A DNA stretch of 64,000 bases from Escherichia coli (GTDB lineage: Bacteria > Pseudomonadota > Gammaproteobacteria > Enterobacterales > Enterobacteriaceae). Under the pieces are notes generated by a model. The model saw nothing but the letters and a program-made list of their open reading frames with translations. It searched no databases and was not told the DNA's origin. The DNA lies in the NCBI RefSeq assembly GCF_003018255.1, contig NZ_CP027440.1; one strand, given 5' to 3'. Positions 24,464 to 28,610 of the stretch are shown piece after piece. Made by a program: the position numbers and the translations under genes. How positions within the stretch are numbered: position 1 is the stretch's first letter; each line of letters begins with the position of its first letter.

Positions 24464-26323
24464 TTACTCTTTCACCACAATTAACGGTTCAATATCACTC
24501 TCTTTTTTGATGACCAGTGATTCATCACCGCGCAAACACGTCCCACCGTAGTTGCCGCCAACGGTGAAAGTACATACCTGAATGTATTTACCGTCCACTT
24601 TCGGCAAACACCACAGTTGCTGATAGATGTTTTTCTGCTCGGCAAATTTACCGCTGGTTTTGTCCAGCACCTCTTCATGATGGCTGACGAGGTCGATGTT
24701 ACTGCCACAGCGACCGGCGATCGGTTTAACGGCATAACCGGTTTTCACCAGCTCATCATTCACGGTGAAGTCAGTATCCAACAGATAACGATGGTGCGGG
24801 AACAGAGACCAGAGGATCGGCAGAATCGCTTTGTTACCGGGGATCACCGTCCATAGCGGCTCAAAAACCAACACTTCCGGGCGTAACAGAACGTCTATCA
24901 GACGAACTTCATTTTGTGGATGCCCGGTACGGATCGGCACTGCGGCAAATTCACGGTCGCTCACTTCGCGGATTTGATCAAATGCCGTTTCCCACGCCCA
25001 GGTTTTCCATACGCAGTTAACCAGTCGCCCTTCCCCATCAATCAGTTGCCCGGCAGCATCCCAGCCCAGTTCATCCAACCCACGCAAGATACGCGTTTCA
25101 AAGCCCGCCTGGTGCAGCGCCTGCTCCATAAACTGCGCGTGATAGTTTTCCTCGATATCTTTGTCCTGCATGATATGGACAAACGGACGTGCACGACTGT
25201 GTTTCCACGCGCCAGCCAGTTCGTTAATCAGTCCTTCCGCAGGATTGAAGCCGTTGCCTTTATAGCCCTGCTCCGCCCAACGTTCGAGGATCAAGCCCGC
25301 TTCGGTATGACAGGAGGCAGAATCGGCGTTGTATTCGTAGACTTTCAGGCCACGTTCATCCATGCAGAAATCCATACGACCAGTGATCATATGATGACGG
25401 CGACGCTGCCAGGAGAGACGCAAACGTGGCCAGAGGATTTTCGGAATGTCAAACAGCGCCAGCAGGTTGTCATCTTTCAGCACCTTGTCGGTGGCGTGAA
25501 GATACATCAGGTGCAGCTCGTTGGTGGCTTTAATCAGCTCCTGCTCGGCACTCTCGGTAATGGTGTAGTAATGATACGGATCCTGATTGATCACCTGGCC
25601 GTTGGCCTGTACATAGGCGTTTTGCAGCGGATCTTTTTCATCCAGCCATTTACCGTCAAACTGGCCTTTGTTTTCCAGACGCGCCCCGCTGATTTTCAGC
25701 AGTTCGCCTGCAATTTCCGGCTGTGGCAAGCTGTATTCGGTATCTTCCGTCTGGATCATCCAGCCCAGAATAGTGGTGTCATCGAAGGTGTCTTTCAGGG
25801 TATAGCCGCCGTTTTCGACCACCATCTCCAGCTCGCGTGTCCACTGTTGCCCTTGCGGCAACGGGGTATGAATCACGTTCTGTTCCGCAATACGGACTTT
25901 GTTGCCATGCAATTGGGTAATGATGGCGACATGGCCAGTGTCTTTAAATTCACCGCCTTTATCCCAGATAAGAAGCGCCCCCGCTACCGGTGCACGCGGC
26001 GAACCGTTAGGAAATGCCTGCAATGGCAGGATGTTGTCATTGACCACTTCACGCAGGAAGCGCAGTGAGAAAATCTCCCATGCCATACCCACGTCAGTGA
26101 AGACTACACCGTAGTTCAGAAAGAGAAAACGGCGAGCAAATTCAACGCATTGCCATTTGTGGCCCATATATTCATCGTCGATATAGCTACGGAATACGGC
26201 GTCATCTTCGTATTCCTGCGGATCGAGAGAACTGTAATCTGAAGAGTAGATTGCTACCCCACCTGGGGCGTAGCCCAATAATGTCCCGAACGGGGCATCC
26301 TGGCTGGTCGTTCCTTTGCTCAT
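24464..26323 (-). CDS. gss: Bifunctional glutathionylspermidine synthetase/amidase, 619 aa
   Basis: Protein recognised (MSKGTTSQDAPFGTLLGYAPGG...); start taken at second Met of track ORF. Confidence 0.93.
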   Translation of the reverse strand: MSKGTTSQDAPFGTLLGYAPGGVAIYSSDYSSLDPQEYEDDAVFRSYIDDEYMGHKWQCVEFARRFLFLNYGVVFTDVGMAWEIFSLRFLREVVNDNILPLQAFPNGSPRAPVAGALLIWDKGGEFKDTGHVAIITQLHGNKVRIAEQNVIHTPLPQGQQWTRELEMVVENGGYTLKDTFDDTTILGWMIQTEDTEYSLPQPEIAGELLKISGARLENKGQFDGKWLDEKDPLQNAYVQANGQVINQDPYHYYTITESAEQELIKATNELHLMYLHATDKVLKDDNLLALFDIPKILWPRLRLSWQRRRHHMITGRMDFCMDERGLKVYEYNADSASCHTEAGLILERWAEQGYKGNGFNPAEGLINELAGAWKHSRARPFVHIMQDKDIEENYHAQFMEQALHQAGFETRILRGLDELGWDAAGQLIDGEGRLVNCVWKTWAWETAFDQIREVSDREFAAVPIRTGHPQNEVRLIDVLLRPEVLVFEPLWTVIPGNKAILPILWSLFPHHRYLLDTDFTVNDELVKTGYAVKPIAGRCGSNIDLVSHHEEVLDKTSGKFAEQKNIYQQLWCLPKVDGKYIQVCTFTVGGNYGGTCLRGDESLVIKKESDIEPLIVVKE

Positions 26324-26527
26324 CACTTTACCTTTAACAATACAACCTAAGCAGTTGGCGTAATTGTTGTGCTCTGATTACCTGCTCAGCGACATTAACC
26401 GGACAGAGGTCAGACTAATCATACACCTCATCGCAGCGGCTGGCGCAAAGGGTTAAAAAATTCACATTCTGTACAGCAAGTGACCTGCTACACTGCTTCA
26501 ACACTACCACTCAGAAGGCAACTCACT

Positions 26528-27394
26528 ATGACAGACAATACTTATCAGCCCGCGAAAGTCTGGACGTGGGATAAATCCGCTGGCGGCGCGTTCGCCAGTA
26601 TCAATCGCCCGGTTTCTGGTCCGACGCATGAAAAAACGCTGCCGGTGGGCAAACATCCATTGCAACTTTATTCGCTGGGAACGCCGAACGGTCAGAAAGT
26701 AACGATTATGCTTGAGGAGCTGCTGGCACTGGGCGTTACTGGTGCAGAGTACGACGCCTGGCTGATTCGCATTGGCGATGGCGATCAATTCTCCAGCGGC
26801 TTTGTCGAAGTGAACCCAAATTCGAAGATCCCGGCATTGCGCGATCATACCCATAATCCGCCGATCCGCGTGTTTGAGTCTGGATCGATTCTGCTTTATC
26901 TGGCAGAGAAATTTGGCTACTTCTTGCCGCAGGATCTGGCGAAACGTACTGAAGCAATGAGCTGGCTGTTCTGGTTACAGGGCGCGGCACCGTTCCTCGG
27001 CGGTGGTTTTGGTCACTTTTACCATTACGCACCGGTGAAAATTGAGTACGCCATCAACCGCTTTACTATGGAAGCCAAGCGCCTTCTCGACGTGCTGGAT
27101 AAGCAACTGGCGCAGCATAAGTTTGTTGCGGGCGATGAGTACACCATTGCGGATATGGCGATTTGGCCATGGTTTGGCAATGTGGTGTTAGGCGGCGTAT
27201 ATGATGCCGCAGAGTTTCTTGATGCGGGCAGTTATAAGCATGTACAACGCTGGGCGAAAGAAGTGGGCGAACGTCCGGCAGTGAAGCGTGGGCGTATTGT
27301 TAACCGCATCAACGGACCGCTGAACGAGCAGTTGCATGAACGCCATGACGCCAGTGATTTCGAGACGAATACGGAAGATAAGCGTCAGGGGTAA
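26528..27394 (+). CDS. yghU: Glutathione S-transferase-like protein, 288 aa
   Basis: Track ORF trimmed to ATG at 26528 (MTDNTYQPAKVW...). Confidence 0.9.
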   Translation: MTDNTYQPAKVWTWDKSAGGAFASINRPVSGPTHEKTLPVGKHPLQLYSLGTPNGQKVTIMLEELLALGVTGAEYDAWLIRIGDGDQFSSGFVEVNPNSKIPALRDHTHNPPIRVFESGSILLYLAEKFGYFLPQDLAKRTEAMSWLFWLQGAAPFLGGGFGHFYHYAPVKIEYAINRFTMEAKRLLDVLDKQLAQHKFVAGDEYTIADMAIWPWFGNVVLGGVYDAAEFLDAGSYKHVQRWAKEVGERPAVKRGRIVNRINGPLNEQLHERHDASDFETNTEDKRQG

Positions 27395-27430
27395 TGGTTA
27401 GCGTTCGTCGCAGCAAGCCATCCAGACCAA

Positions 27431-27517
27431 TGTAGGCCGGATAAGGCGTTCACGCCGCATCCGGCAATCGAGCACAATGCCTGATGCGACGCTGCCGCGT
27501 CTTATCAGGCCTACAAA
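27431..27517. repeat. Two inverted REP units (BIME-like)
   Basis: Units ...taggccggataaggcgttcacgccgcatccggca... and ...gcctgatgcgacgctgccgcgtcttatcaggcctaca... between yghU and hybG. Confidence 0.8.
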
Positions 27518-27526
27518 AGCTAATCA

Positions 27527-27775
27527 TCACGCGCTGGTAATGTCGTAATCCATTTGGCGCAGTGCGTCTAATGTGGCTTTGGCTTCGTCTTCATCGATAA
27601 TGCTCATGGCAAATCCGACGTGTACCAGTACCCACTGGCCCAGCAGATCGGCAGGGTTACCTTCACAAATCAGGGCGATATTCACGTCGCGCTTGATACC
27701 ACATACTTCAACCTGCGCAAGCTGGTGAATATCTTCACCGACAGCCAGCACCTGGCCTGGAACGCCAATACACAT
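27527..27775 (-). CDS. hybG: Hydrogenase maturation factor (HypC family), 82 aa
   Basis: N-terminal MCIGVPGQV motif characteristic of HypC/HybG. Confidence 0.93.
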
Positions 27776-27787
27776 TGTTAACTCCGG

Positions 27788-28129
27788 TTATTCAACTTCA
27801 ATACTTTTGACGATTAGCGAATCGCCGGTATCGACACGCAACCGCTCGCCATGACAGATCGGACACTGCGCATCGTGCTGATGAATCTCCACCACCTGGC
27901 TGCAATCCCAACACCAGGCCTGGGCGGGTTTATAGACGATATGTAAATCGCACCCTTGCGCTACCGTTCCGTGGCAGACAATTTCAAAACTAAAACGGAC
28001 GGCGCTCTCCTCAACGCAGGAGAGTGCACCAATTTCCAGCCACACGGCGGTGACGCGCTTAACATCGTGCTGCTCCGCCTGCCGTTGGATAATTTCAACG
28101 GCGCTCTGGCAAAGCGACAACTCATGCAT
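27788..28129 (-). CDS. hybF: Hydrogenase nickel incorporation protein (HypA family), 113 aa
   Basis: Track ORF trimmed to MHELSLCQSAV...; CxxC zinc motifs. Confidence 0.92.
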   Translation of the reverse strand: MHELSLCQSAVEIIQRQAEQHDVKRVTAVWLEIGALSCVEESAVRFSFEIVCHGTVAQGCDLHIVYKPAQAWCWDCSQVVEIHQHDAQCPICHGERLRVDTGDSLIVKSIEVE

Positions 28130-28610
28130 TTTCGCCACTCCTGCGGCCAAATAGCAGGGCACGACGCCCTGCGTGTGGTACATCCGGATTGGTGACTGGC
28201 AGCGAAAGGATCATTCGGGCGCAGTCATCCGTCAGCCGTTGGCCCTCTTCAATCGACATGCTGTGCGAAAGCGGCGACATCAGCGAGCAGGAGAGGTATT
28301 GCGAAACACCATCCAGTTCACCAACAGTAAAGGTCATAGTGCCATACGGCAGTTGCAGACCAATTTTTTCACTCACTTTGCGCAGCGGCCAGAGTTGATC
28401 CGGGCCGGGGAAGATAACTGCACTCAGCATCCACGGGGTGATCACACACCCCGTCCACTGACCTTCGAACAGCGTAAAGTCAGAAACATACACCGGCATT
28501 GAAGGATGCAGAAAAGAGAGATCATGCATCGAACGCCGGGCAATTTCTTCAAAAGCTGCCTGTACTTGCACCTTCGGGGAGGTCTGGAAACCTGCTATCT
28601 CTTCAGTCAT
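28122..28610 (-). CDS. hybE: Hydrogenase-2 operon chaperone, 162 aa
   Basis: Trimmed to MTEEIAGFQTSPK...; 8-nt overlap with hybF. Confidence 0.9.
   Translation of the reverse strand: MTEEIAGFQTSPKVQVQAAFEEIARRSMHDLSFLHPSMPVYVSDFTLFEGQWTGCVITPWMLSAVIFPGPDQLWPLRKVSEKIGLQLPYGTMTFTVGELDGVSQYLSCSLMSPLSHSMSIEEGQRLTDDCARMILSLPVTNPDVPHAGRRALLFGRRSGENA

Follow-up and report, generated by a model that had tools for sequence, protein, structure and literature searches.

A BIME-2-type REP pair between the convergent yghU and hybG genes of Escherichia coli

Introduction

REP sequences and the BIMEs that they form have been described since the 1980s and 1990s, and several hundred such loci are found in Escherichia coli. 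The E. coli REPs fall into the types y, z1 and z2, each of which has a conserved GTAG located 5′ of its stem (Ton-Hoang et al., PMC3333891). BIME-1 consists of a y and a z1 REP joined by a long L linker, often with an IHF site. BIME-2 consists of a y and a z2 REP joined by a short S linker; it usually occurs in tandem copies, and its copy number differs between strains (PMC3333891). For K-12, 584 REPs have been reported, and the GTAG has been reported as required for TnpAREP binding (PMC3333891). According to the literature, tnpAREP is present in 74 of 110 E. coli/Shigella genomes and has been lost in some B2 strains.

REP325, which is located between yjdM and yjdN in K-12, was described as a partly Rho-dependent terminator that also stabilizes the upstream mRNA (2026 preprint). 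In the same preprint, REPs located between convergent genes were associated with higher expression of both genes. REP effects were found to be context-dependent, and terminal REPs were not generally tied to longer mRNA half-lives. The nucleoid function of naRNA4 is disputed for REP325 itself (2026 preprint).

Here, we describe a REP pair located in a 64-kb stretch of E. coli DNA (the window) between yghU and hybG, with which the hyb operon ends. We compare it with the systems above, follow its alleles within E. coli and in related species, and weigh the functions that it may have.

The convergent yghU–hybG junction

Over the stretch compared, the window and the E. coli ATCC 11775 (DSM 30083) chromosome are 100% identical. 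yghU on the plus strand and hybG on the minus strand converge on a gap of 132 nt (27395-27526). The REP pair lies inside this gap and is extragenic, being placed between stop codons at 27394 and 27527. The features of the locus are:

26528-27394, plus strand: yghU coding sequence (open reading frame list; RefSeq annotation of the identical ATCC 11775 sequence)
27395-27431, no strand: unique left spacer of the intergenic region (window compared with the K-12 locus L001)
27432-27465, plus strand, GTAG first: y-type REP, 34/34 consensus match (also an inverted repeat that folds)
27466-27478, no strand: short S-type linker of 13 nt, AATCGAGCACAAT (sequence; REP325 comparison; IHF pattern scan)
27479-27514, minus strand, GTAG first (CTAC at 27511-27514 on the plus strand): z2-type REP, 36/36 match to a degenerate pattern (also folds)
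27504-27514, plus strand: 11-nt natural target of IS621, ATCAGGCCTAC, with a CT core, inside the z2 REP and empty in the window
27527-27775, minus strand: hybG coding sequence (open reading frame list; RefSeq annotation of ATCC 11775)

The stop codon of yghU is a TAA at 27392-27394, and the GTAG of the y REP begins 37 nt further on. hybG terminates in the tandem in-frame stops TGA TGA, with 12 nt to the GTAG of the z2 REP (window 27515-27529). In the ATCC 11775 RefSeq record, hybG is preceded on the same strand by hypA/hybF, hybE, hybD and hybC, and the gene order is identical in the K-12 record. A sequence-only reading of the window had placed a REP pair between yghU and the convergent end of the hyb operon, and the RefSeq annotation of ATCC 11775 confirms this location. 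The span given in that reading, 27431-27517, corresponds to the pair plus one and three flanking bases. The RefSeq records carry no repeat annotation at the yghU–hybG gap, which is uninformative because REP325 is unlabelled too.

In the left flank, the repeat finder indicated that 27406-27418 (CGTCGCAGCAAGC) resembles the 3′ stem arm of the z2 REP at 11 of 13 positions. By a rough estimate, a relic half-REP at this site is not distinguishable from chance, and we dropped it. Elsewhere in the window, gathering-level Rfam matches were seen for C0719 RNA (RF00117; 1965-2186, plus strand, 294 bits) and for the ES173 sRNA (RF02753; 44102-44165, plus strand, 99 bits).

Two REPs that form a BIME-2-type unit

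On the plus strand the y REP reads GTAGGCCGGATAAGGCGTTCACGCCGCATCCGGC, which is an exact 34/34 match, on the minus strand, to the y consensus GCCGGATGCGGCGTGAACGCCTTATCCGGCCTAC. Its GTAG occupies 27432-27435 and is located 5′ of an imperfect palindrome with the stem GGCCGGAU..AUCCGGC and an AA/GC internal mismatch. The z2 REP reads GCCTGATGCGACGCTGCCGCGTCTTATCAGGCCTAC on the plus strand and shows 0 mismatches to the degenerate 36-nt REP pattern. It also matches the long z2 consensus GCCTGATGCGACGCTGGCGCGTCTTATCAGGCCTAC and is one loop base off the z2 query that PMC11208160 gives. At 36 nt it has the length of z2, z1 being ∼29 nt long. A REP consensus scan, which the sequence-only reading had proposed as a check, is thus matched exactly by both REPs. 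With 3 mismatches allowed, neither the y nor the z2 pattern gave a match in 100 dinucleotide-preserving shuffles of the window. As the consensus matches are exact and none occur in the shuffles, the REP pair is confirmed to be real and its coordinates correct, far beyond chance.

The repeat finder returned each REP as an imperfect palindrome, and it matched the outer arms of the pair (27431-27448 and 27498-27515) with 89% complementarity. The REPs stand in inverted orientation, head-to-head, with the heads inward and the GTAG/CTAC ends outward, in accordance with the inverted orientation described earlier. They are the only REP-pattern matches in the 64-kb window. A single y/z-type REP locus per 64 kb seems sparse for E. 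coli.

A pattern scan for the IHF consensus WATCAANNNNTTR found no site anywhere in 27395-27526. From its sequence, we classify the element as a single BIME-2-type unit, since it has a y and a z2 REP arranged head-to-head over a linker of 13 nt, with no IHF consensus. The IHF binding that had been offered as an option in the sequence-only reading belongs to BIME-1 and is inapplicable to this S-type linker. The judgement that the pair is a standard feature holds, as it is a textbook BIME-2 unit. It shares with the described BIME-2 the exact y and z2 sequences, the inverted head-to-head arrangement, the short linker, the extragenic location and the variation in copy number between strains. It differs in being one pair in the window, whereas BIME-2 is typically tandem and multi-copy. 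No flanking s, l or r motifs were identified at the pair.

The Rfam model RF02564 (naRNA4), which was built on the y/z2 units of REP325 and has a gathering score of 59.5, matches 27435-27511 over model positions 1-77 of 77 with 90.5 bits on the plus strand and 60.4 bits on the minus strand. This match adds to the consensus matches in favor of the BIME-type pair recognized earlier. Like the units of REP325, the one in the window is a 77-nt y–13 nt–z2 unit with the same spacing and a two-hairpin structure, and 68–69 of the 77 positions are identical. However, 6 of the 13 linker positions differ, and REP325 has about six tandem units in an operon of co-directional genes, whereas the window has one unit between convergent genes.

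Predicted folds and transcription signals

The y REP is predicted to form a hairpin of -20.9 kcal/mol in the yghU-sense RNA and of -21.3 kcal/mol in the opposite sense. For the z2 REP the predicted values are -21.9 kcal/mol in the hyb-sense RNA and -21.4 kcal/mol in the opposite sense. Folded as two hairpins, the pair would reach about -42 to -43 kcal/mol. At minimum energy, 27431-27516 folds into a single inter-REP hairpin of -47.0 kcal/mol on the plus strand and -51.6 kcal/mol on the minus strand. Folding with the flanks included gave z-scores of -4.5 and -4.0 relative to shuffles.

Simple scans detected nothing promoter-like in 26300-28300, and in 27395-27526 they detected no terminator-like site on either strand. 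The stems are not followed by a U-run on either strand, the tails being CAAAAGC (plus) and CAUUGGU (minus). The pair has in common with a bidirectional intrinsic terminator that a strong palindrome is located where two convergent transcription units meet. It differs in that its stems lack a U-run, whereas the orthologous gap of Kosakonia has a hairpin followed by a T-run. We therefore rejected an intrinsic (Rho-independent) terminator on the missing U-run and the negative scan. Because the scans detect no promoter- or terminator-like site and there is no U-run, the 3′ region that the two transcription units share contains no structured element other than the REP pair.

Alleles in E. coli and insertion of IS621

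Junction-specific searches, run over 5,426 complete E. coli genomes, gave the following allele counts for the locus:

K-12-type left junction, shorter by 10 nt, the GTAG of the y REP among them; 122-nt gap: 3,948 genomes
Single, more diverged REP; 69-nt gap (L004 396-464): 803 genomes
Window form with both GTAGs intact: 441 genomes
Tandem duplication with two y/z2 pairs (four REPs); 231-nt gap (L003 396-626): 101 genomes
IS621 after ATCAGGCCT in the z2 REP of the yghU–hybG gap: 689 genomes, overlapping the other classes

The 10 nt missing from the K-12 allele (L001 4620-4630) are ACCAATGTAG, corresponding to about 27426-27435 in the window and overlapping the y REP, which leaves a y REP without GTAG. 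The allele of the window is thus the minority complete form. A form with a 141-nt gap was also seen (L006 396-536). It has an extra CATCCGGCT next to hybG, which it has in common with the single-REP allele. This shared sequence suggests a deletion or an insertion between short direct repeats.

IS621 is an element of the IS110 family whose left end encodes a bridge RNA, and its natural target is ATCAGGCCTAC (PMC11208160). The point of insertion in the z2 REP, after ATCAGGCCT, is exactly this natural target (L005 796-1000; L007 452-1535, E. coli JE86-ST02). The locus-specific right IS621 junction defines the 689 genomes listed above. In the one IS621-bearing genome that was read (L005), the left junction is K-12-type.

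The element in its present form is dispensable: the 803 genomes of the second class have one REP only, and in the 689 genomes with IS621 the z2 REP is split.

Related enterobacteria

Escherichia albertii and E. whittamii have the same y–S–z2 pair with a left junction that lacks the GTAG. In one Escherichia sp. the gap contains a multi-copy array with the GTAG present. In Escherichia sp. E1V33 (L010 1749-1925) the place of the y REP is taken by a palindromic repeat, CCCCTCGCCCCTTCGGGGAGAGGGTTAGTGTGAGGGG, that is GC-rich and boxC-like, while linker and z2 REP are retained. As the pair is shared with both E. albertii and E. whittamii, the element predates E. coli, and it is still changing in detail, as is described for BIME-2.

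A strong hairpin of -13 to -37 kcal/mol is found in the gap of all 24 other enterobacterial genomes examined that have convergent yghU and hybG. The hairpins are REP-like in Citrobacter and Salmonella. Several Citrobacter species (L013, L022, L014 and L026) have REP pairs in the gap that are arranged tail-to-tail, opposite to the pair in the window. The Citrobacter REPs were found by direct reading, as the ungapped consensus scan misses them through 1-nt indels. Salmonella enterica arizonae (L017) has a head-to-head pair of a y-like and a z1-like REP, and Kosakonia (L040, L043) has a plain GC hairpin with a T-run. This comparison lends weak support to a role of the hairpin in the RNA, because most convergent junctions have some hairpin.

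Discussion

We consider it likely, with a probability of about 85%, that the element is one BIME-2 unit of the E. coli REP/BIME (REPIN) family, located in the shared 3′ region of the convergent yghU and hybOABCDEFG units. Its most likely mode of action would be that of an RNA 3′-end hairpin in both directions. Both transcripts would run into the REP element. The first REP met by each transcript would then form a hairpin of about -21 kcal/mol, or both REPs would form one hairpin of -47 to -52 kcal/mol. Such a hairpin would block 3′-to-5′ exonucleases and leave a stable 3′ end. The element would probably also let fewer transcripts read on in antisense into the facing gene, in part via Rho.

The sequence identity, orientation, architecture and position of the pair, its fold energies and the lack of a canonical terminator are observed at the locus. 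The effects on RNA we infer from other REPs, because of the classical role of REPs and the 2026 preprint on REP325. The context dependence reported in that preprint, and its lack of a general link between terminal REPs and half-life, count against an RNA role at this locus. In the literature searched we found no data on transcript 3′ ends, half-lives or termination for the yghU–hybG gap. hybG and yghU are absent from the supplementary text of the 2026 REP preprint, where their K-12 coordinates are absent as well, and from that of PMC6379681 and PMC12306157. The mRNA stabilization and the gyrase binding that the sequence-only reading had suggested would both be expectations at the level of the REP family.

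The pair may instead be mainly a neutral or selfish, non-autonomous mobile REPIN, spread by TnpAREP/RAYT, that has no locus-specific job and sits at an insertion-tolerant site. We regard this as possible, although we lean against it. Like a REPIN, the pair consists of two inverted REPs, both flanked by GTAG in the window allele, and is predicted to form the expected long RNA hairpin. The turnover of the locus points the same way: there are four allele classes in E. coli and other REP arrangements in Citrobacter and Salmonella, and variation of BIME-2 copy number from strain to strain has been described before (PMC3333891). However, a hairpin is kept at the junction in every genome examined despite changes of REP type, suggesting that some structure is needed, and 73% of the E. 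coli genomes keep the y REP although it lacks the GTAG needed by TnpAREP. Recent movement is not evident either, as E. albertii and E. whittamii also have this site occupied. A cognate RAYT/TnpAREP gene would be located outside the 64-kb window. A selfish or neutral origin is compatible with the RNA 3′-end role and does not exclude it.

The pair may also act at the level of DNA, as a site that is bound and cut by DNA gyrase to relieve the positive supercoils which accumulate between convergent genes, where it is located. BIME-2 elements, mostly in their y REPs, are enriched in sites of gyrase cleavage (PMC6379681), which makes this reading plausible for the family. For this pair we find it unlikely. 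The cleavage sites occur in a subset of BIME-2 only, and the examples named are multi-copy (PMC6379681), in contrast to the single pair in the window. The absence of hybG and yghU from the supplementary text of that study likewise counts against it.

REPs are also said to stall ribosomes, with mRNA cleavage and tmRNA tagging as the consequence, as reportedly proposed by Liang, Rudd and Deutscher in 2015. At this locus the z2 REP would stall the terminating ribosome at the hybG stop and thereby lower HybG. According to the rule quoted in PMC12306157, REPs that are within 15 nt of a stop codon stall ribosomes, and the distance of 12 nt from the hybG stop to the GTAG is inside this limit. However, base pairing in the stem begins ∼15–16 nt from the hybG stop, which is at the edge of the rule, and yghU falls outside it, as 37 nt separate its stop from the y-REP GTAG. 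Stalling at hybG therefore seems rather doubtful to us.

The RF02564 match exceeds the gathering score on both strands, which could indicate a naRNA4-like, nucleoid-associated RNA that condenses the chromosome together with HU. This is very improbable, as the match mirrors the shared y/z2 repeat sequence only, there is no promoter-like site nearby in the region scanned, and the results of the 2026 preprint are negative. An independent sRNA gene was rejected for the same lack of a nearby promoter-like site and with the Rfam match reflecting the repeat family only. An IHF-binding BIME-1 (RIB/RIP), with which the element shares the general BIME label and a y REP with an inverted second REP, is refuted at the sequence level by a z2 in place of a z1 REP, a 13-nt linker in place of a long L linker and the absence of the IHF consensus from the intergenic region.

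The natural allelic series comprises the single REP, the y/z2 pair whose y REP either has or lacks its GTAG, the duplicated pair and the REP split by IS621. There is a slim chance that these alleles act as expression variants for the maturation of hydrogenase-2 (hybG) and for yghU, whether through 3′-end stability, through read-through or through the stalling of ribosomes at the hybG stop codon, which is 12 nt away from the REP.

Taken together, the REP pair between yghU and hybG is an ordinary element, of a known kind and in a known place. E. coli has several hundred REP/BIME loci, and as a genome feature this one is of small importance. It serves as an annotation landmark for the 3′ limits of yghU and the hyb operon, and it is a clean natural example of REP turnover. 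It is also a frequently occupied natural landing site of IS621, the bridge-RNA recombinase that is now used in genome engineering.
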